Source: Lachnospiraceae bacterium (GTDB lineage: Bacteria; Bacillota; Clostridia; Lachnospirales; Lachnospiraceae). Taken from it: DNA of 59,493 nt. The position numbers were made by a program, and so were the translations under genes. Below are positions 4,618 to 24,591 of this stretch, one piece after another. The notes beneath the pieces were generated by a model. The model was given only the letters and a program-made list of their open reading frames with translations. It ran no database searches and had not been told where the DNA came from. Where the stretch lies: NCBI GenBank assembly GCA_045651105.1, contig JAZRRW010000067.1:1-59493 (forward strand), given 5' to 3'. Numbering within the stretch: the stretch's first letter is position 1; the number at the start of each line of letters is the position of its first letter.

Positions 4618-5907
4618 TTACTCCAGCTTCCCCTTGGCAGGCTGTACCTCCATGCTCATGATTTGATGATACAAATCTCTCAAAACCTCTACCGAAAAAG
4701 GCTCATTTGTTTTGCGCAAAATACCGTGCTTTGCGGCCATCTCGTTGGTATAGTCCTCCAGCATATATACACCAAACTCCATGGTGCCGTAATTCCAGTG
4801 GGCCACCAAAGGTTCCAACGTATAGTCTTTAATACGAAAATCCTTTCCATCCTCATGAACATGCATTTCTATGGTAATGCGGGCCATGCCGCCCAGCAGC
4901 CTTGGTATCCGGTCCTGGGTAGAGACAAAATTGCCCACAGAATAATATACCAGCATTTCATGACCGTCCTCGCCGGTCAACATGGTATAAGGCTCCAATA
5001 CATGTGGATGGGCATTAATAGCAATATCTACACCCTGCTCTAAAAGAAAGTCCACCCATTGCTTGGACTGTTCACTTGGCTCATACACATATTCATTCCC
5101 TACATGCAAAAATACCACCACCAAATCGGCAAGCTCTTTTGCCTTAGCAATATCCCTGGTCATCTTTTCCTTGTCCAGCAAATTCACCAGATACGGTTCC
5201 TCAGCGGGCATAGGGAGACCATTTAGGCCATAGGTGTAATTGAGCATGGCAAAACGAATGCCCTTACACTCTACCACATCAATTTTGTCCTGGTCCTCTT
5301 CACTCTCGTTAATGCCAAGCACCGTAATCTCCGGATGCTTCTCCTTCCAGAAATTCAGGGTATCCCAGACCCCCTCAGCCCCTTTGTCTACGGTGTGATT
5401 ACTGGCATGTAGCACCACATCAAACCCGGTCCGTACCAGGGAATCTCCGATTTCCGGTGGAGAACCAAATCTGGGGTAAGCACTGATTTTGCTGCGGTCG
5501 TTAATAAAAATAGTTTCCTGATTGATAATAGCCAAATCCGCTGCTTCCACCTCATCCCGTACATTGGCATACACGTGGTCATAATTCCACTCGCCGTCAG
5601 CTTTCATGCCTGTCTTGTATAATCCTTCATGTATCAGATTGTCCCCTACCGCCAAAAGCTCCACCGTTACAAAGGATTCCTGAAACTCCTCGGTGGTCTC
5701 TATAACCTCTGTAACTTCTGTATTCAATATTGTCTCAGGCTCTGCTACTGCCTCTATCCCCACAGTACTGCTCTCTCCGGAGGAACTATCCGTCAGAACA
5801 CTGCAGCCTGTGCATAAAGCAAACATCCCCAGTACAATGAATCCCACTTGTACCTTACGTAATATATATATTTTCATAAGTAGTATACCTACCTGCGTTT
5901 CCTGCAC
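4618..5907 (-). CDS. CapA/PGA_cap family metallophosphatase-fold protein, signal/lipoprotein-like N-terminus
   Basis: LLAVGDNLIHE, HASNHTVDKG and VFLHVGNEY motifs. Hydrophobic leader ends in LCTGC. The start may instead be the ATG at 5877 (MKIYILRK). Confidence 0.8.
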   Translation of the reverse strand: MQETQVGILLMKIYILRKVQVGFIVLGMFALCTGCSVLTDSSSGESSTVGIEAVAEPETILNTEVTEVIETTEEFQESFVTVELLAVGDNLIHEGLYKTGMKADGEWNYDHVYANVRDEVEAADLAIINQETIFINDRSKISAYPRFGSPPEIGDSLVRTGFDVVLHASNHTVDKGAEGVWDTLNFWKEKHPEITVLGINESEEDQDKIDVVECKGIRFAMLNYTYGLNGLPMPAEEPYLVNLLDKEKMTRDIAKAKELADLVVVFLHVGNEYVYEPSEQSKQWVDFLLEQGVDIAINAHPHVLEPYTMLTGEDGHEMLVYYSVGNFVSTQDRIPRLLGGMARITIEMHVHEDGKDFRIKDYTLEPLVAHWNYGTMEFGVYMLEDYTNEMAAKHGILRKTNEPFSVEVLRDLYHQIMSMEVQPAKGKLE

Positions 5908-9555: not shown

Positions 9556-9876
9556 TTATAATAAATGTACCGGCATTTCTTCTGTCAGTCGACAAGCTTC
9601 ATTGCCTTTCTTTTGCTTTATCGGCTCTGCAGCCGGTGCTTTCTTTTCCTTCTTTACAGTCGTTTTCTCAACTGCTGCCTTCTTTGCTGCTGGCTTTCTG
9701 GTTGTGGTCGTCTTCGTCGCCTTTACAGGTGCGGTCACATCCTTTTCAGGTTGGGACTGCTCCTCCACAACTGTAGTCTTCGGCTCCACCTGTACCTCTT
9801 CGATTACTGCCTTCTTGGTGGTTGCTTCTGCATTTGCCTTTGATGCTCTTTTAATACTTCCTGCTCCTACTGCCAT
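9556..9876 (-). CDS. Lys/Thr/Ala/Glu-rich low-complexity protein (106 aa), candidate ParA partner
   Basis: The ATG overlaps the ParA stop (ATATGGCAGTAG), with AAGGAG upstream. It has 19 Lys, many Glu/Thr/Ala and no Phe, Trp or Tyr, including PAAKKAAVEKTTVKKEKKAPAAEP. Plus-strand ORFs over the same span are mirror artefacts. Confidence 0.6.
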   Translation of the reverse strand: MAVGAGSIKRASKANAEATTKKAVIEEVQVEPKTTVVEEQSQPEKDVTAPVKATKTTTTRKPAAKKAAVEKTTVKKEKKAPAAEPIKQKKGNEACRLTEEMPVHLL

Positions 9877-10658
9877 ATGCTATCAATCTCCTTTGCAAGC
9901 TCCATATATTCTCCGGCGCTTCGTGCCTTTGCTTTGTGAACCAGCACAGGCTTACTGTCGTCCTGAGCCCACTCCACTTCACTGTCCACGCGGATAATAT
10001 TCTGAAAAACGTGTACATTGTCTGCGGAACGTAAGGTTTCGCATGTTTGCTTGTAATAATTTTTACGGGCGTCTACCTTGGTAATAGCTATGCCCAAAAG
10101 CTCCAAATTCTCATTGATGCGGCGAACATCCTCCAAAAATTCGAACATGTTGGCCACACCGAACAATCCCCACGGACTGGCCTCTACCGGCATGATCACA
10201 TAGTTTGATGCGCAGAGTATATTCATAACCCAGCCACCCAGTGTAGGAGGCGCATCTATCAGAATATAGTCATACAGATTAGATTCCTTAATACTTTTCA
10301 GACAGTTTTTTAAAATAAACTCCCTCTGCCATTTGGTAAAAAGCTCGTACTCCATACCACTCATCAACATGGAAGAGGGTATGAGATCCAGATTTTCATA
10401 AGGAGTAGGGATAATGTACTCCTTTAAGTCCTCCTGCTTTTTGATGGCATGATAAAGATTGCGTTCACTGGCTGCCAGCTCCAACACTTGGTCCTCTGTA
10501 AAAAAGGACAGGGACAGATTCAGCTGCATATCTCCGTCTATCAAAAGAACCTTCCTTCCCATGGTTGCCAAAGAGTAACCTATATTCGCACAGGAAGTGG
10601 TTTTGCCACTACCGCCTTTATTGTTTGCAAATGCTATGATTTTAGTTTTCTTCTCCAT
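9867..10658 (-). CDS. ParA/MinD-family P-loop ATPase
   Basis: MEKKTKIIAFANNKGGSGKTT carries the deviant Walker A KGGxGKT with the signature Lys. LLIDGDMQ and ILIDAPP motifs are present. Start chosen at M16. Its ATG lies inside the last codons of the DeoR gene (17-nt overlap). Confidence 0.85.
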   Translation of the reverse strand: MEKKTKIIAFANNKGGSGKTTSCANIGYSLATMGRKVLLIDGDMQLNLSLSFFTEDQVLELAASERNLYHAIKKQEDLKEYIIPTPYENLDLIPSSMLMSGMEYELFTKWQREFILKNCLKSIKESNLYDYILIDAPPTLGGWVMNILCASNYVIMPVEASPWGLFGVANMFEFLEDVRRINENLELLGIAITKVDARKNYYKQTCETLRSADNVHVFQNIIRVDSEVEWAQDDSKPVLVHKAKARSAGEYMELAKEIDSIWQ

Positions 10659-11412
10659 ACAGACATTCAATCCCTTTATCCCTAAAATATTCCATCCATG
10701 CATCGGATGGACGTATGTCAGTTACTATCGTGTCAATATCTCTGATTTCACAAATCTGTGAAAAGGCTGCTTTGTCGAATTTGGTATGGTCTACAGCCAA
10801 TATTCTCATACCGGCTGAACGAAGCATGCTCTTTTTAACCTGTGAAAACATTTCATTGGTATCGGTAATGCCCTTATTCATATCGATTCCCTTACAGGAC
10901 ATTATGACCTTGTCAGCATTAAAAGTACTGATACTTTCTACTGCCTTCGGACCTACCAGTACCAGATAATTCTCCCAAATGGAGCCCCCGGTGGAAATAA
11001 CATTCCAACCCGGTACCTCCGCTACCTCTAACAGAACTTCTACGGAGTTAGTTACGATTGTAAGTCGGTTTTTGTCTTTGATAGCATTCACGATTGCTAC
11101 GGTAGTAGTACTTGGGTCCAGAATAATATGGTCGCCGTCAGCAATCATTCCGGCAACTATCTCTGCAATCATGCGTTTTCCACGCATATTTTTCTTTTTG
11201 CGGACGCTGAAAGGCATTTCCGTGTTACTATTTTCCACTAAAACGGCTCCACCATATGTCTTGGTCGCCAAGCCCATTTTTTCTAATTTGTCTAAGTCTC
11301 TTCTGATGGTTTCCTCAGACACATCAAACTGCTCGCTCAACTCACCTACTACTACACGTTTTTCGTCTTGAAGCTTCTCCAGTATCAGATTTCTTCTTTC
11401 TACTGCTAACAT
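10642..11412 (-). CDS. DeoR-family transcriptional regulator (sugar-phosphate sensing)
   Basis: 256 aa. N-terminal HTH RRNLILEKLQDEKRVVVGELSEQFDVSEETIRRDLDKLE plus a DeoR C-terminal sensor domain. Starts 17 nt after the PduT-like gene. Confidence 0.9.
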   Translation of the reverse strand: MLAVERRNLILEKLQDEKRVVVGELSEQFDVSEETIRRDLDKLEKMGLATKTYGGAVLVENSNTEMPFSVRKKKNMRGKRMIAEIVAGMIADGDHIILDPSTTTVAIVNAIKDKNRLTIVTNSVEVLLEVAEVPGWNVISTGGSIWENYLVLVGPKAVESISTFNADKVIMSCKGIDMNKGITDTNEMFSQVKKSMLRSAGMRILAVDHTKFDKAAFSQICEIRDIDTIVTDIRPSDAWMEYFRDKGIECLYGEEN

Positions 11413-11429: not shown

Positions 11430-11978
11430 CTATAAAATAGACTTACAAAGCTGCGCGTCAGGACGTGCAATAACGGAAGAATCCAAAAACATGCCCCTTT
11501 CACCTACACTTACCTTTGCCTTCTGAATAGCCGCCTCACAGGCTGCCACTTCACCGGTAATCAACATGTAGGACTTGCCACACATACCCTTTGCAATACG
11601 CAGCTCAATGAGCTTGACAATTGCAGTCTTGGCTGCAATGTCGGCTGCTACAATAATAGATGCTGCGTCATAAGTCTCTAAAATGCCCAATGCATTAATT
11701 TCATCAATCTGGCTGCTACCGTAAATAGCAGGAAAAATGGATGCGTCCGGATTGCCCAACACGAAGCTTCCGATTAATTCGTCCGGTCTGGTTTTTTCTG
11801 CACGGTCTATAGCCGCTCTTACCGCACTTAAATCACCGGCAATCAGGGCAATGTACTTGCCCGGACATACGGTCTGCGCCTCTAACAATTCCACTTCAGA
11901 GGTCTTTACCATCTGATCTGCTGCAGTAATACCTGCTGAAACTGTCTTAAATTCAATCATTCCGATTGCTCTAGCCAT
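11430..11978 (-). CDS. pduT: BMC-T tandem-domain shell protein, PduT-like
   Basis: 182 aa with two BMC repeats (AIGMIEFKT..., ALGILETYD...). A Cys in TVCPGKY sits at the position of the PduT Fe-S ligand. Confidence 0.8.
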   Translation of the reverse strand: MARAIGMIEFKTVSAGITAADQMVKTSEVELLEAQTVCPGKYIALIAGDLSAVRAAIDRAEKTRPDELIGSFVLGNPDASIFPAIYGSSQIDEINALGILETYDAASIIVAADIAAKTAIVKLIELRIAKGMCGKSYMLITGEVAACEAAIQKAKVSVGERGMFLDSSVIARPDAQLCKSIL

Positions 11979-11988
11979 GTTCTATCCT

Positions 11989-13308
11989 CTACTTAATGAT
12001 AATATAATCCTTAGTTACTTCCTGTACAACACCTGAAATAGATGCATGAATATTTACAGACAGACCCTCTGCTGCCTTACCTACCACATCACCGGCAGAC
12101 ACAGCATCTCCCACGCTTACCACTGTAGCTGCAGGTGCACCAATATGCTGAGACAACATAATTTTAACTTCCTTTGCATTTCTGGAAGAATCATCCAGCT
12201 TTGCAGGCTTATCATACTCTCCTAAGCCCAATCTTGCAAGCAGTCTGCCCTCCCAGGCTCTGCGGTATTCTCGAGAAGCCTTTACCGGTGCCGCCTCTAC
12301 TACAGGAGGCTTAATACTTGCCTTACGGAGACCGTTTTTGTACTCGTTAATCATAGTACGCGGAGAAAGTCCCTGCGGACAACTAAATAACTCACATAAA
12401 CCGCAGGCGCTGCAGAACATGGTATCCAAGAATGGTTCTAAATCCTGAAAATCCTGATTGGCTGCCGCCCTCATAAATAAATGAGGCTGTATCGGGTAAC
12501 CCAACGCAAATCTAGGGCAAAGATCCGTACATGTCTGACACTGACAACAGCTGGACGCTGCCCGTGCCACCGCGGTTTTAAACCGATTGGTCTTGCGGTA
12601 AACAAGCGTATGATCCTCCGGCAATACAATAATAGCGTTGGTAGTCTTGGTCACAGGCTGATAATCCTTGCCAAAGCTTCCCATCATAGGACCACCCAAC
12701 AAGTACACCGGCTTCTTGGTAGTGATACCTCCGGCCATGGCTACCACATCACGAATACGCATACCGATTGGTACACGAACGGTAATCGGGTTCGCCACTT
12801 CACCTACTACGGATACGTACTTCTCTGTAACTGGCTTGCCTTCCCAGACTGCCCGGTAAATATTGTACACGGTCTCTACGTTAAATACGGCCACACCGCT
12901 TTCAATCGGCAGACCGCCGGGACGCACTACTCTGCCTGTAGCTTCATAAATAAGGATGACTTCATCCCCCATTGGATATGCTCCCGGTAATTTATGTATA
13001 CGCATCATTGGGAACTCGTCCATATACTCTTCCAGTGCCTCAATGGTGCTCTTATATTCTTCTTTAATTCCAATAATCGCTTCTTTTGCCTGTACCGTTT
13101 CGGCAAGCAAGGCAAATGCTTTTAATATCTCATGTGCATGAACCTTTAACAGCTGTCTGTGCAGCTTTAACAATGGCTCGCATTCCGCACAGTTCATGAG
13201 AATGGTATCAGCCTTGTCGGAAAGCTTGCCGTAGGTAGGAAAACCTGCTCCGCCTGCTCCTACGATACCATTCTCTTTTAAGATTTTGCTTAAATTAGCA
13301 ATTTCCAT
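11989..13308 (-). CDS. pduS: PduS-like RnfC-type flavo-iron-sulfur protein
   Basis: 439 aa. GAGGAGFPT nucleotide/FMN motif, an SLBB-like region, and two Cys clusters CCQCQTCTDLCP and CSACGLCELFSCP. Confidence 0.8.
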   Translation of the reverse strand: MEIANLSKILKENGIVGAGGAGFPTYGKLSDKADTILMNCAECEPLLKLHRQLLKVHAHEILKAFALLAETVQAKEAIIGIKEEYKSTIEALEEYMDEFPMMRIHKLPGAYPMGDEVILIYEATGRVVRPGGLPIESGVAVFNVETVYNIYRAVWEGKPVTEKYVSVVGEVANPITVRVPIGMRIRDVVAMAGGITTKKPVYLLGGPMMGSFGKDYQPVTKTTNAIIVLPEDHTLVYRKTNRFKTAVARAASSCCQCQTCTDLCPRFALGYPIQPHLFMRAAANQDFQDLEPFLDTMFCSACGLCELFSCPQGLSPRTMINEYKNGLRKASIKPPVVEAAPVKASREYRRAWEGRLLARLGLGEYDKPAKLDDSSRNAKEVKIMLSQHIGAPAATVVSVGDAVSAGDVVGKAAEGLSVNIHASISGVVQEVTKDYIIIK

Positions 13309-13314
13309 AACCTG

Positions 13315-13590
13315 TTACCCCAATTTCCCGATGTCATCGATGATACCTACAATAGCGGCATCAATAGGAGAATCCGGCAACCCGCAGCCAATACGTGCTG
13401 CGCTGCCCTGAGCTACCAATACATACTCACCGATTCCGGCACCGATGTTGTCAATAGCTACCAGTCTGTTATGCTCTCCGTTCATCATACTAATCGGCTC
13501 AATTACCATGAACTTGTTACCAACCAGGTTATCCTGCTTGCGTGTGGAAACGATACTTCCTATTACTTTTCCAATAATCATTTCTATCAC
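13315..13590 (-). CDS. BMC-P pentameric vertex protein (EutN/CcmL/PduN family)
   Basis: 91 aa. MIIGKVIGSIVSTRK...LVAIDNIGAG...VLVAQGSAAR is typical of EutN/PduN. Confidence 0.9.
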   Translation of the reverse strand: MIEMIIGKVIGSIVSTRKQDNLVGNKFMVIEPISMMNGEHNRLVAIDNIGAGIGEYVLVAQGSAARIGCGLPDSPIDAAIVGIIDDIGKLG

Positions 13591-13614
13591 TCGTTTCTGA
13601 CTGTGTTTAAACTT

Positions 13615-14268
13615 CTATTTAATGACTACTACCTTGTCACCCTGCTTGATTTCACTGGCATTGGCTTCATCTGTGTCAATGTGCATTTCCAGCGTAAAGC
13701 TTTCATCTACACGGATTTTAACATTGTTAAAGGTAGTACCACGCTCATTTTCTACTTTTACGCTTACATAGTCGCCGTCATTTACTCCGCAAGCAGCGGC
13801 ATCAGCCGGTGACATGTGAATATGTCTGGCTGCTACGATACAGCCTTCGTTACAATAAACAGCTCCCTTAGGACCAACAATCGCGATAGGGGCAGAGCCT
13901 TTTACATCTCCTGATTCACGGATTGGCACATTGATGCCCAGCTTTCTGGCATCTGTGCTGCTGATCTCTACCTGTGTACTCTTACGGGCAGGACCTAACA
14001 CTCTGACATTTTCGATTGCACGCAGCTTTAAACCTACGATGGTACAGCATTCATTGCAGGCAAACTGTCCGCCCATCAGCTCCTTCTTCTTGGTAAGCTG
14101 ATATCCCGGACCAAACAAAGCCTCCACATGCTCCTGTGATAAATGAATGTGTCTGTTGCTGACACCTACAGGAACCAAAAATCCATTGCCCTTTTCCTTT
14201 TCCTGCTGCATACAGGATAATACTAACTTGGTTAAGGCTTCCAATTCATTTCTTTCCATGTTGTTCAC
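13615..14268 (-). CDS. pduL: Phosphate acyltransferase PduL with N-terminal encapsulation-type helix
   Basis: 217 aa. Duplicated PduL motif VPVGVSNRHIHLS / IVAARHIHMS. N-terminus reads ELEALTKLVLSCMQQ. Confidence 0.9.
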   Translation of the reverse strand: MNNMERNELEALTKLVLSCMQQEKEKGNGFLVPVGVSNRHIHLSQEHVEALFGPGYQLTKKKELMGGQFACNECCTIVGLKLRAIENVRVLGPARKSTQVEISSTDARKLGINVPIRESGDVKGSAPIAIVGPKGAVYCNEGCIVAARHIHMSPADAAACGVNDGDYVSVKVENERGTTFNNVKIRVDESFTLEMHIDTDEANASEIKQGDKVVVIK

Positions 14269-14292
14269 CTGTTACCCTTCTAATATTTGATA

Positions 14293-14342
14293 GTCAGCTA
14301 TAAAAAGTACAGCTGACCGGGAGCACCGAAAACGGTGCCCCC
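14293..14342 (-). promoter_or_regulatory. Two adjacent intercistronic hairpins after a BMC-H gene (RNA stabiliser or partial attenuator)
   Basis: gggagcaccg-aaaa-cggtgccccc and gtcagct-N11-agctgac. No clear U-run follows either on the minus strand. Confidence 0.4.
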
Positions 14343-14371
14343 AGCAACATATATATGTATGTCACCTATAC

Positions 14372-14650
14372 TTATTTGATAGCAGGAAGAATACCTTCAA
14401 CATCTGTGTGTGGACGTGGAATTACGTGCTGAGCTACTAACTCACCAAGTCTTTCAGCGTTCATAGCGCCTGCTTCTACTGCAGACTTAACTGCACCTAC
14501 ATCACCACGTACCATAACGGTTACTAAACCGGAACCGATCTTCTCAGTACCTACTAAAGTAACGTTTGCTGCCTTACACATTGTATCAGCTGCCTCGATA
14601 GCTGCTGTAAGTCCTCTTGTTTCTACCATTCCTAATGCTTCCTGTGCCAT
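14372..14650 (-). CDS. BMC-H hexameric shell protein (PduA/EutM-like)
   Basis: 92 aa. [27 protein letters not shown]...[11 protein letters not shown]. Confidence 0.9.
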
Positions 14651-14716
14651 AGTTTTATCCTCCTTACTTATGTGCCAGAATTTGATAATATAAATTGTTA
14701 TGCTGCTTGCACAGCT

Positions 14717-14745
14717 ATTATACTGTATTTCTACAGTTATTTCCA
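14717..14745 (-). promoter_or_regulatory. Possible internal sigma-A promoter inside the BMC operon (TGGAAA-N17-TATAAT)
   Basis: On the minus strand, TGGAAA sits at 14745..14740 and TATAAT at 14722..14717. They lie in the 163-nt gap between two shell genes. Confidence 0.3.
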
Positions 14746-14813
14746 GATATTTTTATCTGTTTCCGGATTTATTTGCAGCTTTTTATTGCTGCAGGCGGCC
14801 TTACTGCCCAATA

Positions 14814-15113
14814 TTACTTTTTCTGCAGTCTCTTTGCGCTCTTTGCCACCAGCTTGCGTGTCTCCTCAGCAGGAGCAGCAATAATACCTGATGCCGCCAA
14901 AATATGATTATTTGCATTGCAAATGCCTGCAGCAGCTTCCACTGCTGCCTTTACGTCAGACACGGTACCTTCCACAATAATAGTAACCAATCGGCCACCC
15001 ATTTTGCGTTCCCAGGTAACCAGCTTTACATCTGCCGCCTTACACATTGCATCTAAAGAATCCATTGCAGCAACCACACCGGAAACCTCAATCAGTCCGT
15101 ATGAGCCACCCAT
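14814..15113 (-). CDS. BMC-H shell protein with basic C-terminal tail
   Basis: 99 aa. YGLIEVSGVVAAMDSLDAMCKAADV...IIVEGTVSDVK. The tail reads RKLVAKSAKRLQKK. Confidence 0.85.
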   Translation of the reverse strand: MGGSYGLIEVSGVVAAMDSLDAMCKAADVKLVTWERKMGGRLVTIIVEGTVSDVKAAVEAAAGICNANNHILAASGIIAAPAEETRKLVAKSAKRLQKK

Positions 15114-15118
15114 AGTTC

Positions 15119-15403
15119 TTATGCCTCAGGGAATCCCGGAAGAATCTTCTCAACGTCTGCATGTGGACGTGGAATAACGTGCTGAGCTACCAATTCACCA
15201 AGACGGCTTGCTGCTGCCGCACCGGATTCTACAGCTGCCTTCACAGCGCCTACATCACCACGTACCATAACTGTTACCAAACCGGAACCAATCTTCTCAG
15301 TACCTACTAAAGTAACCTCAGCAGACTTTGTCATTGCATCTGCAGCGTCAATTGCTGCTGTAAGTCCTCTTGTTTCTACCATTCCTAATGCTTCTTTTGC
15401 CAT
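15119..15403 (-). CDS. BMC-H hexameric shell protein (PduA/EutM-like)
   Basis: 94 aa, a close paralog of the 14372..14650 product. Confidence 0.9.
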
Positions 15404-15455
15404 TTTAATAGCCTCTCTTTCTTATAAAAACTCTTAATATAATATACTTTAATTT

Positions 15456-15773
15456 TTAATTTGTGTCAAATCCACAAATGTTTAACATTTTTAATGTGTC
15501 ACTGGTTGGTCTTGGGATTATATGACTTTGTACAACCCCTGTTGTCCTCTTTGCCATTTCAATTCCGGCTTCTACAGCTGCGGTTACATCCTCTACGCTG
15601 CCGCGGAACTTTATGGTTACCAAAAGCGGTACCTTCAAGGTTTCTGCATTTGCAGGCTTGTTCTTGTCAAAAGGCTCCAATGTAACATTGGCTGCCTTAC
15701 AGCCTGCGTCTGCTGCCATGAATGCACAAACAACTCCGTAGACCTCCAGGATACCTACTGCTCTTTCATCCAT
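15456..15773 (-). CDS. BMC-H variant shell protein with an internal insertion
   Basis: 105 aa. AVGILEVYGVVCAFMAADAGCKAANV, then the insert EPFDKNKPANAETLKVP, then IKFRGSVEDVTAAVEAG. Confidence 0.8.
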   Translation of the reverse strand: MDERAVGILEVYGVVCAFMAADAGCKAANVTLEPFDKNKPANAETLKVPLLVTIKFRGSVEDVTAAVEAGIEMAKRTTGVVQSHIIPRPTSDTLKMLNICGFDTN

Positions 15774-15807
15774 ATCAGCTTTCCTCTCTTAAAGTAACAC
15801 TTTCCGA

Positions 15808-17025
15808 TTAATCCATGAAAACTGCAACCTTAAGTCCGGTCATTGCAAGATTCTTCTTGTATGCTTCGTTAATCTCGCTTAACGGATATCTGTCAGTAAT
15901 CAGCTCGCTCATAGGAAGACCGATTGCCTTTGCACTCTTTAAGAACTCAAAGGTAGTTGCATAATCACGAAGTGTGTATACCCAGCTTCCTACGGTTGTG
16001 ATTTCCTTAGAGCAGATGTCAAAGTGAGGGTTGATGGTTGCATCACCGCCATTGATGAAGAAACCAAGCTCGCACAGACCGCCGCCCTGACGGATAAACT
16101 TGTAAATATTTGAGTGACCTACAGGAGAACCTGTACACTGGAATGCAAAGTCTGCAAGATGACCTTCAAACTTGTCATAAATGCCCTTTGCCATTTCCTC
16201 TGCACCCTTGTAATCCTTAAAGTTTACACTATCGCTTGCGCCAAGTCTCTTTGCAAACTCGAGACGGCCTTCATTACCATCAACTGCAATAATGTTGCCG
16301 ATACCCATAGTATGTAAAATAGCAATACAAATCAAACCGATCGGTCCACAGCCCTGTACTACAACGCGGCTGTTAAATCTTAAGATGCCTGTGGTCTTTG
16401 CACGCTCTACTGCGTGGATTAAAACGGCACATGGCTCGATTAAGATACGGGAATCCAAATCCAAATCACTTACGTTAAAGAATGTGGAACCCTTACGGCT
16501 AATCAGGATGTAATCTGCAAACCAGCCGTTAAGATGAATATCATCATCTGGAACCAGACCGTATACTTCCGCACCGTTACCAACGTTCTGCTTATTTAAG
16601 TCAAACATGGTGATGTCCGGGTCATCCTTGAAAATCATACAGGTAACAATCTTGTCACCAACCTTAACATCCTTGCCTGCGCTGTCCTTTTTGACATTCT
16701 TACCCATCTTTACGATTTCACCGGTACCTTCATGTCCTAAAGCTACAGGGATAAGACCAAATGGGTCGCGCTTGTATTCGTGAGCATCTGTACCACAGAT
16801 ACCACAGCCCTCAACCTTAACGAGGATGTCGTCATCGCCAACCTCCGGCATTGGGTATTCCTTAATTTCTACAGTTTCAAGAGCGGTAAGCATAGCAACA
16901 TGTGCTGTCTTAGGAATCTCCAGACTGCCTTTGGAAGCTACTACGTTCGCTGCAGGAGCAGAACCGCTTAACTGGCTTAATACCTGCTTTACAATAGCTT
17001 CAACCTGAGAACTATTCATATCCAT
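15808..17025 (-). CDS. Zn-dependent medium-chain (MDR) alcohol dehydrogenase with N-terminal encapsulation-type helix
   Basis: GCGICGTDAHE zinc motif and VQGCGPIGL Rossmann motif. Start set at the ATG at 17025, after AGGAGG (MDMNSSQVEAIVKQVLSQL). The longer ORF-track start would overlap the upstream gene. Confidence 0.85.
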   Translation of the reverse strand: MDMNSSQVEAIVKQVLSQLSGSAPAANVVASKGSLEIPKTAHVAMLTALETVEIKEYPMPEVGDDDILVKVEGCGICGTDAHEYKRDPFGLIPVALGHEGTGEIVKMGKNVKKDSAGKDVKVGDKIVTCMIFKDDPDITMFDLNKQNVGNGAEVYGLVPDDDIHLNGWFADYILISRKGSTFFNVSDLDLDSRILIEPCAVLIHAVERAKTTGILRFNSRVVVQGCGPIGLICIAILHTMGIGNIIAVDGNEGRLEFAKRLGASDSVNFKDYKGAEEMAKGIYDKFEGHLADFAFQCTGSPVGHSNIYKFIRQGGGLCELGFFINGGDATINPHFDICSKEITTVGSWVYTLRDYATTFEFLKSAKAIGLPMSELITDRYPLSEINEAYKKNLAMTGLKVAVFMD

Positions 17026-17041
17026 TATATTTTCCTCCTGT

Positions 17042-18433
17042 CTATCTGATACACAGACTGTCTGACATCGTACAGCGTCTGCTCTTTGTAAATGTGGAAG
17101 CACTGGTCAGACCCTCACCTGTACGGCTGGCAATGGTAAAGGTTGGATAACCTTCTCCGCCAAAACCAAGTGCTGCATAGGACGGACCGTTCTTTACTAA
17201 GATTGCCGTATCCATTGCTCTGGCATACTCGGTAATTCTGTCTACATTCTTGGAATGAATATGTGCAGAGTGGCGGTTGCCATGCTCTAACCAAACAGCG
17301 TCTGCTACAGCTTCCTTAAAGTCCTTAGCCCTTACAATACCAAGGATCGGCATCATCAGCTCTTCTGCAATAAGCGGATGCTCCTTTGGACCTTCAAAGA
17401 TGATACAACGGATATTGTCCGGTGCCTCTACACCTACCATGCCAAGCAATACCTTGGCGCTTCTGCCTACACACTTACGATTTAAAGCACCCTTTTCATT
17501 GAAAACAGTCTTTACTAATTTGTCCTGAACTTCCTTGCTTGCCAGGTAGCAACCCTGCTCTTCAATCATGTACTTCATCAGCTGGTCGCAAATTGCATCA
17601 ACTGCAACTACTTCCTTCTCTGCAATACATGGCAGGTTATTATCAAAGGTACATCCGTTTATGATGTCCTCTGCTGCTTTTCTGACATCAGCAGTCTCAT
17701 CAACCAATGCCGGCGGATTACCTGCACCTGCACCGATACCACGCTTACCGCTGGACAATACGGCTGTTACTACACCCGGACCACCGGTAGCTACCAGTAA
17801 CGGAATATCCTTGTGCTTCATCATGACTGCACTGGAGTCCAAGGTTGGCTTTTCTACGGTACATGCAATGTTATCCGGACCGCCCGCTTCCAAAGAAGCC
17901 TCGTTCAACAGATTTACTGCGAAAATAGATGTCTTTACTGCCTGCGGATGTGGACTGAATACTACGGTATTGCCACCTGCAAGCATACCCATGGTGTTAC
18001 AGAGAACGGTCTCACTAGGATTGGTACAAGGAGTAATGGCGCCGATAACACCAAAAGGTCCTCTCTCTACCAAAGTAAGTCCTCTGTCACCGGACCATGC
18101 AGTAGTGGTAATGTCTTCTGTACCGGGTGTTTTCTCTGCTACTAAGAGGTGCTTCAAAATCTTGTCACCCACATTACCCATGCCGGTCTCATTTACGCCC
18201 ATGCGGGCAAATGTTTCTGCATTTTCTTTAATTTTAGTACGTATATTGGAAATAATTTTTTCACGCTGATCCATGGACATCATACGTACCACTTTTTGTG
18301 CTTCTTTTGCCTTTTCAATTGCGGTATTCATATCAGCATACACACCATGCATACCGGACACACTGCCCTGCAGCTGCATCTTTGCCATGACTTCACCGAC
18401 AATACTTTTAATCTGGCTTTCTGTCATTTCCAA
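17042..18433 (-). CDS. CoA-acylating aldehyde dehydrogenase (PduP/EutE-like) with N-terminal encapsulation-type helix
   Basis: 463 aa. Length and motifs fit the EutE/PduP family (GAITPCTNP, catalytic Cys in NNLPCIAEKE). N-terminus reads ESQIKSIVGEVMAKM. Confidence 0.9.
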   Translation of the reverse strand: MEMTESQIKSIVGEVMAKMQLQGSVSGMHGVYADMNTAIEKAKEAQKVVRMMSMDQREKIISNIRTKIKENAETFARMGVNETGMGNVGDKILKHLLVAEKTPGTEDITTTAWSGDRGLTLVERGPFGVIGAITPCTNPSETVLCNTMGMLAGGNTVVFSPHPQAVKTSIFAVNLLNEASLEAGGPDNIACTVEKPTLDSSAVMMKHKDIPLLVATGGPGVVTAVLSSGKRGIGAGAGNPPALVDETADVRKAAEDIINGCTFDNNLPCIAEKEVVAVDAICDQLMKYMIEEQGCYLASKEVQDKLVKTVFNEKGALNRKCVGRSAKVLLGMVGVEAPDNIRCIIFEGPKEHPLIAEELMMPILGIVRAKDFKEAVADAVWLEHGNRHSAHIHSKNVDRITEYARAMDTAILVKNGPSYAALGFGGEGYPTFTIASRTGEGLTSASTFTKSRRCTMSDSLCIR

Positions 18434-18912
18434 GCTATCACTTCCTTTAATAAATTTTTACCGAAAGTGCCAAGATAGATATCCTGCTCTGCAGTACCTC
18501 CGCTGACACCAATTGCACCGATCATTACGTCATCTACAAATAGAGGCTCGCCTCCGCCAAAGATTACGATTTTGCCCTGATTGGTATGCTGAATACCATA
18601 CAGGGAACCACCCGGTGCCGCAAGCTCGGCAAGCTTTGCGGTTGACATTTGAAAAGCTACCGCAGTATAGGTCTTATTGACAGCGATATCATAACTGCCT
18701 ATGTACGCACCATCCATGCAATGCACTGCAACCGGCCTGCCGGATGCATCAGATACTGCTATGACTGCCTTTACACCTATACGTGCAGCTTCTGCCTCCA
18801 CCCTTTCCATCAGCTCTTTGGCAAGCTTCAGGTTCATGGAAGGAGCTGCCTTCACCTGTTTTAAAACTTCACGGACAATGCTTTCCATGTTATGTATTTC
18901 CATAGGAATCAC
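18424..18912 (-). CDS. DUF336 / GlcG / PduO-C-terminal-like heme-binding-fold protein with N-terminal encapsulation-type helix
   Basis: GVKAVIAVSDASGRPVA...AIGVSGGTAEQD. N-terminus reads MESIVREVLKQVK. The start is ambiguous (GTG at 18912, ATG at 18903 or 18888). There is a 10-nt overlap with the aldehyde dehydrogenase start. Confidence 0.75.
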   Translation of the reverse strand: MIPMEIHNMESIVREVLKQVKAAPSMNLKLAKELMERVEAEAARIGVKAVIAVSDASGRPVAVHCMDGAYIGSYDIAVNKTYTAVAFQMSTAKLAELAAPGGSLYGIQHTNQGKIVIFGGGEPLFVDDVMIGAIGVSGGTAEQDIYLGTFGKNLLKEVIAWK

Positions 18913-18936
18913 CTTGCCTTTCCTGAAACAGGATAT

Positions 18937-19791
18937 TTATTTCATGTTAGCAATTACATTCTTTACGATTTCAGCAATAGCAGCCTCATCTACCTTACCT
19001 TCGCCGCCACAGTCACAACCAAAGTTATATTCATAACCAGGGAACTTGCTGTAATCAGCGTGGCTACCGCAGCTGCCGCCACAGTTATGGCAGTTTGTTG
19101 TACCCTTGTTCAAGCAAACATTTGCAGGATGCTTACCAGGCATACCAAACTTACGACGGATTTCGTAAAGCTTCTTGATATTTTCCTTATCGAATTCCTT
19201 AGGACCGCCAAGCATTTTGGACTTGTACAGAAGCTCTGCATAGAACTCTAAGCTTTCCATCTTGTGATATGCTGCCATTAAGTCTGTGCTCCAGGTTAAT
19301 GCACCATGGTTCTCAAGCAGTACCGCATCAAAGTATGGAAGATACTTCTCTAAGTTATCAGGAATTTCCATAGTAGAAGGTGTACCGTACTCTGCGATCG
19401 GTACGCAACCTAAGGAAATAACTGCTTCCGGCATAATCGGCTGTGTTAAAGGAATACCTGCAATTGCAAAAGATGTTGCAAAAGTAGGATGAGCATGTAC
19501 TACAGCACCTACATCAGGGCGCTTCTCGTATACACGCATATGCATCTTGATTTCAGAAGATGGCTTGAAGCCCTTATTTGCCTGAATCACATTACCCTTA
19601 GCATCTACCTTACAGATGTATTCCGGTGTCATAAAGCCCTTGGATACGCCTGTTGGTGTGCAAAGGAATTCATTGTCGTTCAGCTTTACGGAAATATTTC
19701 CATCATTAGCTGCAACCATGTTACGGTTGTAAATTCTTCTGCCAATTTCACAAATTTGTTTCTTGATTTCCATTTCGTTAATCATGGACAA
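18937..19791 (-). CDS. Class II aldolase (fuculose/rhamnulose-1-phosphate aldolase family) with Cys-rich linker and C-terminal encapsulation-type helix
   Basis: 284 aa. NDGNISV, HAHPTFA and ENHGALTW motifs. The tail reads C-x7-C-x2-C-x3-C...C-x-C, then DEAAIAEIVKNVIANMK. Confidence 0.9.
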   Translation of the reverse strand: MSMINEMEIKKQICEIGRRIYNRNMVAANDGNISVKLNDNEFLCTPTGVSKGFMTPEYICKVDAKGNVIQANKGFKPSSEIKMHMRVYEKRPDVGAVVHAHPTFATSFAIAGIPLTQPIMPEAVISLGCVPIAEYGTPSTMEIPDNLEKYLPYFDAVLLENHGALTWSTDLMAAYHKMESLEFYAELLYKSKMLGGPKEFDKENIKKLYEIRRKFGMPGKHPANVCLNKGTTNCHNCGGSCGSHADYSKFPGYEYNFGCDCGGEGKVDEAAIAEIVKNVIANMK

Positions 19792-19874
19792 TTCCTCCTA
19801 GTTTAAGTTTATATTTATGAAAATGTTTGCTTTCTGGTGTCTAAAAAACAACAACAACCCACATTTATAAATTC

Positions 19875-19903
19875 ATTATATGACTGTTTGTGTGGTTTGT
19901 CAA
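19875..19903 (-). promoter_or_regulatory. Consensus sigma-A promoter of the BMC operon (TTGACA-N17-TATAAT)
   Basis: On the minus strand, TTGACA sits at 19903..19898 and TATAAT at 19880..19875, about 80 nt upstream of the aldolase ATG. The promoter is flanked by CCACACAAA repeats. Confidence 0.6.
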
Positions 19904-19927
19904 TATGGTTTTGTGTGGGTTTTTGTG

Positions 19928-19964
19928 AAAAAAGCCGCCACACCTAGGCAGTATGACGGCTTTT
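19928..19964 (-). terminator. Intrinsic terminator after rhaA
   Basis: gccgcca / tgacggc stem with one G-U pair, flanked by an A-run and a T-run. It lies immediately downstream of the rhaA stop. Confidence 0.6.
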
Positions 19965-19982
19965 ACACTCATTTTATTGAAA

Positions 19983-21230
19983 TTATCTCTTCAACAGTAC
20001 TTCCTGTTCATATTTTTCGATTTCCTTAAACCATTCCGGTCCTGCTTCTACGCCGCACTGTGCACAGTATTCGTTCCAGATATCTCCGAATGGCAGGGTC
20101 TTGATTTCTTCCTGCATTACCATAAGCTCGGTCATACGGTTTGCATCCTGAAGCTCCTTAAGCATAGCATTTGGTGCACAAAGTGCACTGAGAAGTGCCT
20201 TCTGCCAGCTGCGGAAACCAACGGTCCATGCAGAAATACGGTTAATGCTTGCATCAAAGTAGTCAAGTGCCATATACACTCTGTCTAGACCATTGTTGCG
20301 AACGATTTCTTTTGCCATTTCCTTGGTCTCATCATCGAAAAGAACTACGTGGTCGCTGTCCCAACGAATTGGTCTGGTAATATGTAAAGCAATCTCCGGG
20401 AAGAAAGCCAAAAGCGCAGGAATTTTGTCGGAAACCACCTCTGTCGGATGATAATGTCCATTATCCATCAGTGGCAGACAACCCTCATGCATAGCAGCAA
20501 AACTTAAAGAAAACTCTGCACTGCCTACTGTGTAAGCCTCCACACCAATACCGAACACCTTGCTTTCTACACAAGGCTTAACCAAATTCTTATCAAACGG
20601 CTCTGCCAGAATTTCTTCGATAGATTCTTTATAACGAACTCTAGGACCCATTCTGTCCGCCGGAATATCCTTGAAACCGTCACCTGTCCAGATGTTCATA
20701 ACACATGGAATACCTGTTTCCTTCGCAAAATATTCAGAAATACGAATACAAACCTTTCCGTGCTCAATCCAGAACTTTCTGGTTTCTTCATCAGGGCTGG
20801 ATAAAGTCAGACCATCCTTTACCTTATCATGAGAAAAGAAAGTAGGGTTAAAATCAATACCCATGTTTCTTTCCTTAGCAAACTCTACCCACTTTGCAAA
20901 GTGCTTTGGTTCTAACTTATCTCTGTCCACAAACTCGCCTTCCTCAAAAATAGCATAGCAAGCGTGTACGTTTAATTTCTTCTTACCAGGCATCAGACTC
21001 ATAGCCTTATCCATATCCTGTAATAACTGCTCTGGTGTGGTAGCCTTTCCGGGATAGTTACCCGTAGTCTGAATACCACCGGTCAAAGGACCATCATGGT
21101 CAAAACCGATAACATCATCTCCCTGCCAGCAATGAAGGGATACCGGAATTTCTTTTAATTTTGCAATGGCTGCATCTGTATCAACGCCCAATGCTGCATA
21201 GATTTTCTTTGCTTCTTGGTAACGTTTCAT
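19983..21230 (-). CDS. rhaA: L-rhamnose isomerase
   Basis: 415 aa. The sequence from IPVSLHCWQGDDV onward is typical of RhaA. Confidence 0.9.
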   Translation of the reverse strand: MKRYQEAKKIYAALGVDTDAAIAKLKEIPVSLHCWQGDDVIGFDHDGPLTGGIQTTGNYPGKATTPEQLLQDMDKAMSLMPGKKKLNVHACYAIFEEGEFVDRDKLEPKHFAKWVEFAKERNMGIDFNPTFFSHDKVKDGLTLSSPDEETRKFWIEHGKVCIRISEYFAKETGIPCVMNIWTGDGFKDIPADRMGPRVRYKESIEEILAEPFDKNLVKPCVESKVFGIGVEAYTVGSAEFSLSFAAMHEGCLPLMDNGHYHPTEVVSDKIPALLAFFPEIALHITRPIRWDSDHVVLFDDETKEMAKEIVRNNGLDRVYMALDYFDASINRISAWTVGFRSWQKALLSALCAPNAMLKELQDANRMTELMVMQEEIKTLPFGDIWNEYCAQCGVEAGPEWFKEIEKYEQEVLLKR

Positions 21231-21273
21231 TGTGATTCTCCTTTATAATACATGCCCTCAGCGGGACGTTTTA

Positions 21274-22686
21274 TTATTGATTAGTTGGCTGAAAGGTCTT
21301 TACCGCAAAGGACTTGAAAATACCCTTGCGTGCTTCCTCCAGGCTCTCATACTCGCCAGACTTTAACATCTGTGCTACTAAGTTACCAATAGCAGTGGCC
21401 TCTGTAGGACCTGCATAAACCGTTTTGCCGGTACTGTTTGCAGTCAGCTGGCTCAGGTAATCAGCATTGGCACCACCGCCTACAATATTAATAGCCTCAT
21501 AGTCCTTACCGGTAATTGCCTGAATCTCCTGCACAGTCTGTCCGTAACTGTCAGCCAGACTCTGGTATACTACTGTGGAAACCTCGCCCGGTGTCTGTGG
21601 AACAGGCTGTCCTGATTTCTCGCAATACTCCTTGATGGCACCAATCATGCTGTCCGGTGCAAAGAAACAGTCATCATTTACATCCACTCTGGATGGGAAG
21701 TCCTTTACTGCCTCCGCCATGGCACAAAGCTCTGCGAAAGAATACTTATCCTCATATTCATGACGAACAGACTGAATCATCCATAAGCCCATAATATTCT
21801 TAAGGAAACGATAACGATACTCATAACCGCCCTCATTGGTCAGATTAGCCTGACGACTTGCTTCCGTACAGATAGCCTCCATATTCTCCACACCCATCAA
21901 AGACCAGGTGCCGGAGCTGATATAAACCGTTTCCTTACCCATGCTAGGCACTGCCATTACCGCTGAGGCTGTGTCATGCGATGCAATCTGCAGCACATCC
22001 AAATCAAAGCCTACTTCCTCAGCCAGTTCCGGCTTCAGACCACCTACTCTGGTACCTGCTGTGGATAGCGGCACAAACATCTCCTTCTTAATCCCCAACA
22101 TATCAATCAATTTATAATCCCAGTCCTTGGTATCCGGATTAACTAGCTGTCCTGTGGTAGCCTCTGTATACTCGCTCTTTGCCACACCTGTCAGCAAATA
22201 ATTCAAATAATCCGGCACCATCAAAAGCTTATCCGCAGCATCCAACAACTGTGGTTCCTGCATCTTCACAGCCATTAACTGATAAATGGTATTGAACATC
22301 TGCTTTTGAATACCGGTACGGGTATATAAATCCTCCGGTGAAATAATGCGGCTCACCACTTCATCCATGCCGTTGGTGCGGCTGTCTCTGTAGCCATATG
22401 TATTACCGAGCACCTGACCCTCAGCATCTAAAAGCACATAGTCAACGCCCCAGGTATCAATACCCATACTTACCGGAACCTTGCCCAGCTCCTTACACTT
22501 TTTAAGACCTGCTACAATGTCACCAAAAAGCTTCTCATAATCCCAGCAAAGATGACCATCCTTCCTCTGCATCCCATTGGAAAAACGGTGGATTTCCTCC
22601 ATATATATCTGTCCGTCCTCCACCCAGGCCAAGATATGCCTGCCGCTGGATGCACCAATATCTACCGCTAAATAATATTTGTTCAT
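21274..22686 (-). CDS. rhaB: Rhamnulokinase (FGGY family)
   Basis: 470 aa. YLAVDIGASSGRHIL and GIDTWGVDY motifs, with a conserved rhaB-rhaA arrangement. Confidence 0.9.
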   Translation of the reverse strand: MNKYYLAVDIGASSGRHILAWVEDGQIYMEEIHRFSNGMQRKDGHLCWDYEKLFGDIVAGLKKCKELGKVPVSMGIDTWGVDYVLLDAEGQVLGNTYGYRDSRTNGMDEVVSRIISPEDLYTRTGIQKQMFNTIYQLMAVKMQEPQLLDAADKLLMVPDYLNYLLTGVAKSEYTEATTGQLVNPDTKDWDYKLIDMLGIKKEMFVPLSTAGTRVGGLKPELAEEVGFDLDVLQIASHDTASAVMAVPSMGKETVYISSGTWSLMGVENMEAICTEASRQANLTNEGGYEYRYRFLKNIMGLWMIQSVRHEYEDKYSFAELCAMAEAVKDFPSRVDVNDDCFFAPDSMIGAIKEYCEKSGQPVPQTPGEVSTVVYQSLADSYGQTVQEIQAITGKDYEAINIVGGGANADYLSQLTANSTGKTVYAGPTEATAIGNLVAQMLKSGEYESLEEARKGIFKSFAVKTFQPTNQ

Positions 22687-22746
22687 GACTCCCTCCTTAT
22701 ATTATGCCATAATATCTTATTATAATAATATCAAAAATGCGGGCAC

Positions 22747-22780
22747 AAAAAAAGGACACCTTTTGTGAAAAAAAGTGTCC
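22747..22780 (-). terminator. Intrinsic terminator after the AraC-family gene
   Basis: ggacac / gtgtcc stem followed by T7 on the minus strand. Confidence 0.55.
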
Positions 22781-23749
22781 TTATTTGCCATTGACATCCC
22801 TATACTTCTTTGGCGTCACCCCAAATCTCTTCTGAAATATACGATGAAAATAACTTTGATTATCATAGCCAACCGCCAGTCCGATATCCAGCACTGACAT
22901 ATTGGTATTTTCCAGCAAATACACGGCCTGGTTCAATCTTCTTGCCTGTACCAGCTCCGTATAATTTTTACCTGTACGTTTTTTTATTTCCTTGGACAGC
23001 CAATAAGCATCATAATTCAGAAGCTTTGCCAGCTGCGTCAGCTCCCCGTCCCTGTAATGCTCCTCTATGTAGCCCAGCACATCAATAACCAGCTTCTCAC
23101 TGGAATTCTCTGCACTGGCCTCCATGCGGTCCATATGGTTTAACAGCTGCAAAAACAGTAACCCCATGGTCACCTGATTCATGCTGCGTTTGTTCGGTTG
23201 TTTGTGCCAGATAGACCAGATTAAATTTTCCACCAGATTTTGAACAGGCAACACATCAGCCACCTTAAAATGCATATAACCCACAGCATCGTTCTTGCCG
23301 GTCAGACAATTGATTACAAACTCTCTGAGCAAATTCTCCTCATTCCCCATCAGCTTCAGGCCATAGTCAAAAAATTCCGGCAAAACTATAAAATTGACAG
23401 CAATGTCATTTTCTCTAGCGGGATATATTTCCTGCATCGCATTTTGATTTAAAAACAGAAGCTCGCCTTCCTTCAGCACAATTTCCACACCATCAATCAG
23501 ATGTCGCGTACTGCCGGAACACATGTAAATCACTTCAATATAATTATGACTATGCTTTGGAAAATGCACAAAACGGGTATGAGGCCGCACTTGAATAAGC
23601 TTCCCCTTGTCTAAAAGCCTGGCCGCATCAATAACATCCGAATCACCGGCCATATATAAATCCTTTTGAATGGACTTGTCGCCGGAAAGAAGCGCACGCT
23701 CTTCCTCGGTAATCTTTTGTAATTCCTGATATAATGCTTTTGTAATCAT
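22781..23749 (-). CDS. AraC-family transcriptional regulator (cupin sensor plus HTH), probable rhamnose regulator
   Basis: 322 aa. C-terminal AraC HTH (SYFHRIFQKRFGVTPKKYR). Sits adjacent to rhaBA. Confidence 0.85.
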   Translation of the reverse strand: MITKALYQELQKITEEERALLSGDKSIQKDLYMAGDSDVIDAARLLDKGKLIQVRPHTRFVHFPKHSHNYIEVIYMCSGSTRHLIDGVEIVLKEGELLFLNQNAMQEIYPARENDIAVNFIVLPEFFDYGLKLMGNEENLLREFVINCLTGKNDAVGYMHFKVADVLPVQNLVENLIWSIWHKQPNKRSMNQVTMGLLFLQLLNHMDRMEASAENSSEKLVIDVLGYIEEHYRDGELTQLAKLLNYDAYWLSKEIKKRTGKNYTELVQARRLNQAVYLLENTNMSVLDIGLAVGYDNQSYFHRIFQKRFGVTPKKYRDVNGK

Positions 23750-24308: not shown

Positions 24309-24494
24309 TCACTCCACTATTATAGCATCGGTTGGACATCCTTCCGCTGCCTCCTGTGCCAGTTCTGCATTATCCTCCGTAACCTTGCCAACAGCTTCTG
24401 ATATGCCGTTGTCATTAAATTCGAAAACGCTGCCGCATACACCTACACAAAAACCGCAACTGATACATTTATCCGGATCTACATGTGCTTTCAT
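24309..24494 (-). CDS. Small 4Fe-4S/3Fe-4S ferredoxin
   Basis: 61 aa starting at MKAHVDPDKCISCGFCVGVC and containing EGCPTDAI. GGGAGGG RBS. Confidence 0.85.
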   Translation of the reverse strand: MKAHVDPDKCISCGFCVGVCGSVFEFNDNGISEAVGKVTEDNAELAQEAAEGCPTDAIIVE

Positions 24495-24591
24495 ACATAC
24501 CCTCCCATGTATAATGTCTAACCACATTATACCCCATATGGTACCTTAATATGCATGGTGCATGCTAACCCCCAGCTTACCCCCCGTAGCA

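Follow-up and report, generated by a model that had tools for sequence, protein, structure and literature searches.

The window analyzed here, the 59,493-nt contig JAZRRW010000067.1 of a gut or rumen Lachnospiraceae bacterium (GCA_045651105.1), encodes a bacterial microcompartment (BMC) operon in which a class II aldolase is the only candidate signature enzyme, so that the aldolase-centered deoxyhexose BMC proposed in the initial annotation stands. The locus is a fucose/rhamnose GRM5 operon that lost the module of its glycyl radical enzyme (GRE), a 1,2-propanediol dehydratase, by a single clean deletion, and its 12 remaining genes, from the aldolase to a PduT-like shell protein, have been under strong purifying selection since then. 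The class is already catalogued as PVM-like and the chemistry proposed for it is published; the locus as such is therefore no discovery. The new element is the origin of a PVM-like operon from GRM5, at base-pair level, through deletion of the GRE module with the promoter kept, together with the finding that purifying selection on the shortened operon matches that on intact GRM5 operons and that the operon occurs in gut metatranscriptomes.

Loss of the GRE module from a GRM5 operon

Relatives of the locus were collected by an aldolase-alignment scan with one genome per species, which matched more than 598 stretches; the best 80 of these (L001 to L080) were all from Lachnospiraceae-type Clostridia. 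Ten close relatives were found via contigs encoding an identical fourth BMC-H shell protein. In most relatives, the aldolase gene is directly preceded by genes for a GRE of ~845 amino acids (aa) with PFL-like and Gly_radical domains, a 264-aa radical-SAM activase, a 124-aa BMC-H protein, and PduV, an order that is the published GRM5 architecture. On the 3' side of the aldolase, the GRE-bearing relatives carry the same genes as the window. Among the loci that share the identical BMC-H protein, L082, L085 to L088, and L090 read rhaA-GRE-activase-BMC-H-PduV-aldolase and are 84 to 88% identical to the window at the nucleotide level. Protein identity to GRE-containing loci is 83 to 99% (84 to 92% for L001), and in a neighbor-joining tree of the aldolase, the aldehyde dehydrogenase (AldDH), and the Zn-dependent alcohol dehydrogenase (Zn-ADH), the window is sister to GRE-containing L001 and nested in a GRE-containing clade. 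The features that flank the missing module are as follows:

19983..21230, minus strand: rhaA, L-rhamnose isomerase (Pfam RhaA, E = 2e-180)
19935..19951, minus strand: terminator-like hairpin and T-run 3' of rhaA, parting the rha genes from the BMC operon
19875..19903, minus strand: BMC operon promoter, TTGACA-17-TATAAT (12/12 match)
19832..19845, minus strand: deletion joint, from alignment with GRE-containing relatives
18937..19785, minus strand: class II aldolase, 282 aa, with a Cys/His-rich linker and the C-terminal encapsulation peptide IAEIVKNVIANM (Pfam Aldolase_II)

In the intergenic alignment, window positions 19926 to 19845 match the promoter and leader found ahead of the GRE gene in relatives that have one. 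Homology to the GRE 5' leader stops near 19844 to 19845, and homology to the stretch just upstream of the relatives' aldolase begins near 19832 to 19834. About 4.3 to 4.6 kb is missing between them, comprising the genes for the GRE, the activase, the 124-aa BMC-H protein, and PduV, and the ancestral promoter is now joined directly to the ribosome-binding region of the aldolase gene. In GRE-containing L082, a ACATTTTCA-like microhomology is present on both sides. The promoter is flanked by CCACACAAA-type repeats and an inverted copy, TGTGGGTT; across the 80 loci, conservation of the promoter sequence is limited to the nearest relatives (L001, L003, L012, and L070), and it therefore yields no family-wide operator motif.

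The same arrangement, rhaB-rhaA-aldolase, was found in L083 (a metagenome-assembled genome at NCBI, GCA_017516285.1) and L089 (an ENA metagenome assembly), which come from different projects and are ~94.5% identical to the window over 13 kb. The joint of L089 is identical to that of the window, and L083 shares it but for a 35-nt insert with a copy of ACATTTTC on either side (L083 positions 4790 to 4830). Logan contigs from four metagenome runs (X1, X2, X10, and X19) were also compared with the window: a 1,179-nt contig from X1 spans 18956 to 20134, and contigs from X2, X10, and X19 likewise cross the joint. That the rhaA-aldolase junction is an assembly artefact, in a chimeric or collapsed contig, is scarcely credible and is contradicted by the recurrence of the joint in L083, L089, and the contigs of at least four runs. 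Since independent assemblies and metagenome contigs share it, the joint is real and fixed in a species-level clade represented in gut and bovine gut samples.

Several observations concern the surroundings of the joint. The X19 contig carries a 23-nt palindromic insert, GTATCTGTTCAGCACCTGAACAG, at the joint (window about 19815 to 19826), and the X10 contig keeps the GRE-less joint and diverges upstream of it at 19923. Between the window and L083 or L089, the synonymous divergence (dS) is 0.5 to 0.65 for the genes encoding the AraC-family regulator, RhaB, and RhaA and ~0.16 for the BMC core. A RhuM-family gene lies between the AraC and rhaB genes in L083 (722 to 1744) and L089 (729 to 1751) and is not in the window. 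The promoter and BMC operon seem to behave as one module that moves or recombines separately from the genes upstream.

The deleted genes are not found elsewhere in the window. The GRE, activase, fifth BMC-H protein, and PduV of the nearest relative (L001) gave zero matches to the 59-kb window by tblastn, and Pfam analysis of every open reading frame (ORF) of at least 300 aa in the window detected none of the domains PFL-like, Gly_radical, diol dehydratase, and acetate kinase; ORFs of this size outside the locus have housekeeping functions. The initial annotation had listed no diol dehydratase, GRE, or activase, and both searches agree with it. It had also listed no local acyl kinase, and Pfam finds none in the window. 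One other radical-SAM protein (48321 to 49733) was considered as a GRE activase and rejected, being of the UPF0004/MiaB type.

Loci that lack the module are not confined to this clade. Presence of the GRE was counted in the 61 loci that have at least 4.7 kb of upstream sequence, with loci called GRE-less when none was encoded within 10 kb: a GRE is encoded within the locus in 46, 8 of them with its gene downstream of the DeoR-family regulator gene, and 15 are GRE-less. The downstream position characterizes one clade (L049, L050, L053, L054, L056, and L066 to L068), in which the ParA/McdB-like pair adjoins rhaB, so that within the family the GRE module has no settled place. On the tree, loci that lack the GRE but retain all other components turn up in several separate branches. 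Large ORFs upstream of the other GRE-less loci were examined as alternative dehydratases and proved unrelated (GlgB, MscS, AAA, GGDEF, ABC, and DUF5054). A truncated GRE and a missing AldDH in L081 and L084 were considered as intermediates of decay and rejected, since they reflect 100-N scaffold gaps and not pseudogenes.

Selection and expression after the deletion

Across the 12 core genes, the ratio of nonsynonymous to synonymous substitution rates (dN/dS) is 0.04 between the window and L083 and 0.03 between the window and L089, compared with 0.04 to 0.05 for pairs of GRE-containing loci. These values rest on about 35 nonsynonymous and about 265 synonymous changes at a dS of ~0.16, and there are no stop codons or frameshifts. 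Gene by gene, dN/dS is 0.02 to 0.04 for the AldDH, 0.00 for PduL, and 0.02 to 0.04 for PduS and PduT, and the DUF336 gene is constrained too. The 12 genes that remain have thus been under strong purifying selection since the deletion.

Motifs expected of active proteins are seen in the translations: the His/His/His and Glu residues of the aldolase, the cysteine of NNLPCIAEKE in the AldDH, GHE and CGTD in the Zn-ADH, RHIH twice in PduL, and two Cys clusters in the PduS-like protein. In four gut metatranscriptomes, contigs 95 to 99% identical to the window cover the aldolase, DUF336, AldDH, Zn-ADH, shell protein, PduL, BMC-P, and ParA genes. We regard a decaying remnant, an operon left non-functional by loss of the GRE and awaiting erosion, as very improbable. 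The 12 genes are intact in three genomes at a dS of ~0.16, their dN/dS of 0.03 to 0.04 is the same as in GRE-containing pairs, catalytic and cluster-binding motifs are kept, and the operon appears in metatranscriptomes; the selection analysis contradicts decay.

Gene content and encapsulation peptides

On the minus strand from 23749 to 9556, the locus forms two transcription units, AraC-rhaB-rhaA and then, from the promoter at 19903 to 19875, the BMC operon. Besides the features at the joint, it comprises:

22781..23749, minus strand: AraC-family regulator with cupin sensor domain and HTH_18 (Pfam)
21274..22686, minus strand: rhaB, FGGY-family rhamnulokinase (Pfam FGGY_N/FGGY_C)
18424..18912, minus strand: DUF336/HbpS-like protein with the N-terminal encapsulation-peptide-like helix MESIVREVLKQV (Pfam)
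17042..18433, minus strand: CoA-acylating AldDH with the N-terminal encapsulation peptide IKSIVGEVMAKM (Pfam Aldedh); the likely start is the ATG at 18427, giving 461 aa
15808..17025, minus strand: Zn-dependent medium-chain dehydrogenase/reductase (MDR) alcohol dehydrogenase, 405 aa, a GRM5-type lactaldehyde reductase with the N-terminal encapsulation peptide VEAIVKQVLSQL (Pfam)
15456..15773, minus strand: BMC-H shell protein 1 (Pfam BMC)
15119..15403, minus strand: BMC-H shell protein 2 (Pfam BMC)
14814..15113, minus strand: BMC-H shell protein 3 (Pfam BMC)
14372..14650, minus strand: BMC-H shell protein 4, identical at the protein level in many related contigs (Pfam BMC)
13615..14268, minus strand: PduL-type phosphotransacylase, N terminus loosely encapsulation-peptide-like (Pfam PTAC)
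13315..13590, minus strand: BMC-P vertex protein (Pfam EutN_CcmL)
11989..13308, minus strand: PduS-like flavo-FeS protein (Pfam Complex1_51K, SLBB, Fer4_17, RnfC_N)
11430..11978, minus strand: PduT-like tandem-BMC shell protein (Pfam), with the pore motif C-P-G-K-Y, which matches PMC6325248
10642..11412, minus strand: DeoR-family regulator, kept at the 3' end of GRM5 and PVM-like loci (Pfam)
9867..10703, minus strand: ParA/McdA-like ATPase, conserved with the locus (Pfam)
9556..9876, minus strand: small lysine-rich ORF, 106 aa, probably disordered and McdB-like, with termini MAVGAGSIKRASK ... TEEMPVHLL

Pfam bears out the genes and the gene order given in the initial annotation, from the AraC gene through rhaB, rhaA, and the aldolase to the PduT-like gene. 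The core from the aldolase to PduT counts 12 genes, where 13 had been given, and the block drawn at 11430 to 23749 has the gene content described for it and is too short at one end, as the locus runs on to the DeoR gene, the ParA-like gene, and the lysine-rich ORF. For the PduS-like protein, no exact protein is on record. Just upstream of the AraC gene lies a 72-aa ORF (24309 to 24527, minus strand) with a CxxCxxCxxxC pattern that is ferredoxin-like by eye. In many relatives, the DeoR gene is directly followed by a gene for an Fe-type, FucO-like alcohol dehydrogenase (e.g., L037, 18640 to 19791); equivalent ORFs of 381 to 383 aa occur in many loci, and none is found in the window.

The five peptides that had been quoted as targeting sequences are all present verbatim, and none falls within a Pfam catalytic domain. 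The spacing hydrophobic-x-x-hydrophobic-hydrophobic-x-x-hydrophobic-hydrophobic-x-x-hydrophobic is found in four of them, and the PduL peptide follows it only loosely. One transmembrane helix aside, this spacing occurs at five internal sites in the 16,897 residues of 50 window proteins, and it is kept in 77 of 77 AldDH and 72 of 72 Zn-ADH relatives. By the Eisenberg hydrophobic moment, the DUF336 peptide alone is exceptional, the others falling in the 64th to 90th percentile; as the moment fails to single out these four, the peptides were judged by the spacing motif and by how well it is conserved. Their sequences support a reading of the peptides as encapsulation-peptide-like, and the aldolase C-terminal, AldDH, and phosphotransacylase peptides are known features of this BMC family (PMC4594438). 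Between the catalytic domain and the peptide of the aldolase, residues 219 to 235 (window 19083 to 19131) form a linker with a Cys/His cluster, HPAxxC...CHxC, that is conserved in 73 of 80 BMC-associated relatives. The short non-BMC aldolase paralogs of fucose clusters lack it, and from its sequence it looks like a putative metal site.

Proposed chemistry of the GRE-less organelle

On balance, we lean slightly toward an organelle that, lacking a GRE, disproportionates lactaldehyde. In this scheme, RhaA and RhaB would produce L-rhamnulose-1-phosphate, which the encapsulated aldolase would cleave into dihydroxyacetone phosphate, passed out to glycolysis, and L-lactaldehyde. Inside the shell, the Zn-ADH would reduce part of the lactaldehyde to 1,2-propanediol at the expense of NADH, and the AldDH would convert the remainder to lactyl-CoA, regenerating NADH, so that NAD would cycle internally. 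PduL would then form lactyl-phosphate, from which a kinase encoded elsewhere would yield lactate and ATP. The predicted end products are 1,2-propanediol and lactate, compared with the propionate and propanol of GRM5. With no dehydratase and an AldDH that is still constrained, lactaldehyde would be the only aldehyde available to that enzyme, which makes disproportionation the simplest scheme. The same scheme was proposed by Erbilgin 2014, restated by Aussignargues 2015 (PMC4594438) for PVM and PVM-like BMCs, and put forward by Ravcheev 2019 (PMC6620236) for gut Firmicutes.

Several points weigh against disproportionation. The papers cited here for the scheme demonstrate neither oxidation of lactaldehyde by a BMC AldDH nor use of lactyl-CoA by PduL, and the window encodes no acyl kinase. 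PduS and PduT, proposed electron suppliers to the GRE activase, are kept, which also fits a GRE encoded elsewhere. The absence of a dehydratase covers the 59 kb, and the genome could carry a copy elsewhere; a GRE is encoded elsewhere in four of the seven genomes in which it is not beside the BMC genes (Ravcheev 2019, PMC6620236). Compared with GRE-containing relatives, the AldDH has only four fixed substitutions (G23, S24, D378, and Y429), two of them in the linker, too few to give a clear sign of retuning from propionaldehyde to lactaldehyde. The RNA evidence is contig-based and may include DNA carry-over or, at the most conserved shell genes, reads from relatives. Concerning the AldDH itself, residue 429 is Tyr in the GRE-less clade and Phe in all nine GRE-containing close relatives compared; of the clade-specific changes, F429Y alone falls at an AldDH site that is invariant elsewhere, and it may bear on specificity.

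An alternative hypothesis, which we consider possible though rather unlikely, is that another site in the genome encodes either a GRE and its activase or a PduCDE that depends on B12, with the enzyme packaged into these shells or coupled to them. In that case, the route would still be GRM5-like, with lactaldehyde reduced to 1,2-propanediol, dehydrated to propionaldehyde, and converted to propionyl-CoA and propanol. Such an arrangement has precedent, since among 13 gut Firmicutes genomes with this BMC, a GRE is found in 10 and lies beside the BMC genes in only 6 (PMC6620236), and one clade of relatives here has the GRE downstream of DeoR. It would also account for an AldDH almost unchanged from GRE-containing relatives and for selection to keep PduS and PduT, the proposed helpers of activase reduction. 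Against it, the GRE, activase, BMC-H, and PduV genes were lost as one block with a clean joint, and no GRE, activase, or PduCDE is encoded within 59 kb. X1 and X19, small metagenomes with window-like strains, match the GRE module of L001 only in short patches, at less than 90% identity and with zero depth in several bins; this is weak evidence, since some matches stem from other species and an identity of no more than ~84% is expected.

A reductive-only organelle, in which essentially all lactaldehyde would go to 1,2-propanediol as an electron sink and lactyl-CoA would not be a real intermediate, is improbable in our view. It fits the annotation of the Zn-ADH in the literature as the GRM5 lactaldehyde reductase, the lack of a locally encoded acyl kinase, and the fact that the papers cited here give no biochemical proof of lactyl-CoA formation. 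The AldDH and PduL would on this account, and with the same low probability, be kept for another aldehyde or for cofactor balance via PduS and PduT. Yet both carry targeting peptides, the constraint on them since the deletion is as strong as that on the aldolase and Zn-ADH, and the operon encodes no other aldehyde-producing enzyme.

The origin by deletion, the continued selection, and the presence in metatranscriptomes support the view that a core of aldolase, AldDH, alcohol dehydrogenase, and PduL works alone. Sister lineages with and without the GRE would form a natural, isogenic-like pair in which any use of lactaldehyde and lactyl-CoA by the AldDH and PduL and the role of PduS and PduT in B12-independent BMCs can be studied. 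The locus leads us to predict a species-level difference in deoxy-sugar fermentation, with 1,2-propanediol and lactate, rather than propionate, available for cross-feeding. We speculate, tentatively, that loss of the GRE module is a recurrent and selectively maintained switch in gut Lachnospiraceae, from the propionate/propanol organelle of GRM5 to a lactaldehyde-only organelle. If this is true, the switch changes what a species feeds to its community, namely 1,2-propanediol and lactate. The constraint on PduS, PduT, and DUF336 with no GRE or activase in the locus would, under such a switch, mean that their role is not, or not only, activase reduction; one alternative would be an NADH-linked electron conduit across the shell.

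ParA/McdB-like pair

The DeoR gene is followed by the genes for the ParA-like ATPase and the overlapping 106-aa lysine-rich protein, a pair that accompanies the BMC genes in 27 related loci. Both ends of the small protein are conserved, MAVGxGSxKRA at the N terminus and EEMP[IV][YH]LL at the C terminus; at the [YH] position, most relatives have Tyr and the window has His. McdAB systems are recognized by a ParA-type ATPase and, after it, a small partner that is disordered and charged and whose conserved C-terminal motif includes an aromatic residue (PMC11321042). The two proteins of the window are a candidate pair of this kind, similar to putative McdAB-type pairs for positioning that have been described close to GRM loci.

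Comparison with known BMC classes

GRM5 loci (Clostridium phytofermentans and Roseburia inulinivorans; Petit 2013, Zarzycki 2015, Ferlez 2019) have the same gene order as the window from the aldolase to DeoR. Both have AldDH, PduL, encapsulation peptides, a class II aldolase (PF00596) that carries such a peptide at its C terminus, and a lactaldehyde reductase of the Zn type (PF00107 and PF08240). The initial annotation had called a Zn-MDR alcohol dehydrogenase unusual; it is instead the lactaldehyde reductase that defines GRM5, and it carries the same N-terminal peptide in 72 of 72 relatives. GRM5 is, however, defined by a GRE (PF02901 and PF01228) and its activase (PF04055), and the window has neither, nor the adjacent 124-aa BMC-H protein and PduV. 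With the defining GRE and activase absent, the locus is not a member of GRM5.

The PVM of Planctopirus limnophila (Erbilgin 2014) shares the proposed chemistry and an aldolase with a C-terminal encapsulation peptide. Its shell has a BMC-P triplet and two BMC-H proteins, whereas the window encodes one BMC-P, four BMC-H, and one BMC-T protein; it uses a lactate/malate-dehydrogenase-type reductase and an in-locus acetate kinase, in contrast to the Zn-ADH and lack of an acetate kinase in the window; and its gene order differs, in an aerobic host of another phylum. Differences in the make-up of the shell, in the type of reductase, and in the kinase exclude the locus from the planctomycetal PVM class. 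The idea of a distinct design related to the planctomycetal PVM therefore gives way to that of a GRM5 operon minus GRE, activase, one BMC-H protein, and PduV.

Nor is the argument new, for the same one was made for gut Firmicutes by Ravcheev et al. 2019 (PMC6620236), whose fucose/rhamnose BMC, "Pvm," has aldolase, AldDH, phosphotransacylase, and alcohol dehydrogenase, with a GRE absent or not co-localized, and was read as performing lactaldehyde disproportionation. That reading was based on presence and absence in 13 genomes; the deletion joint, the selection test, and the expression evidence come from the present analysis.

The closest match is to the PVM-like loci of Firmicutes (Axen 2014; Sutter 2021; Asija 2021), in which the aldolase is likewise the sole candidate signature enzyme and which share the DeoR regulator and gut habitat with the window. 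The BMC catalogue, which also lists a GRM5like class, describes this class as having the PVM aldolase signature with AldDH, phosphotransacylase, and BMC-P closest to GRM5, and the window, at 84 to 92% protein identity to L001 and nested in a GRE-containing clade, agrees with that description, as did its initial filing as PVM-like. Axen 2014 suspected that PVM-like loci were GRM5 fragments. Nothing essential distinguishes the window from this class, to which the present analysis adds an origin from GRM5 by deletion, resolved at base-pair level, and selection after the loss.

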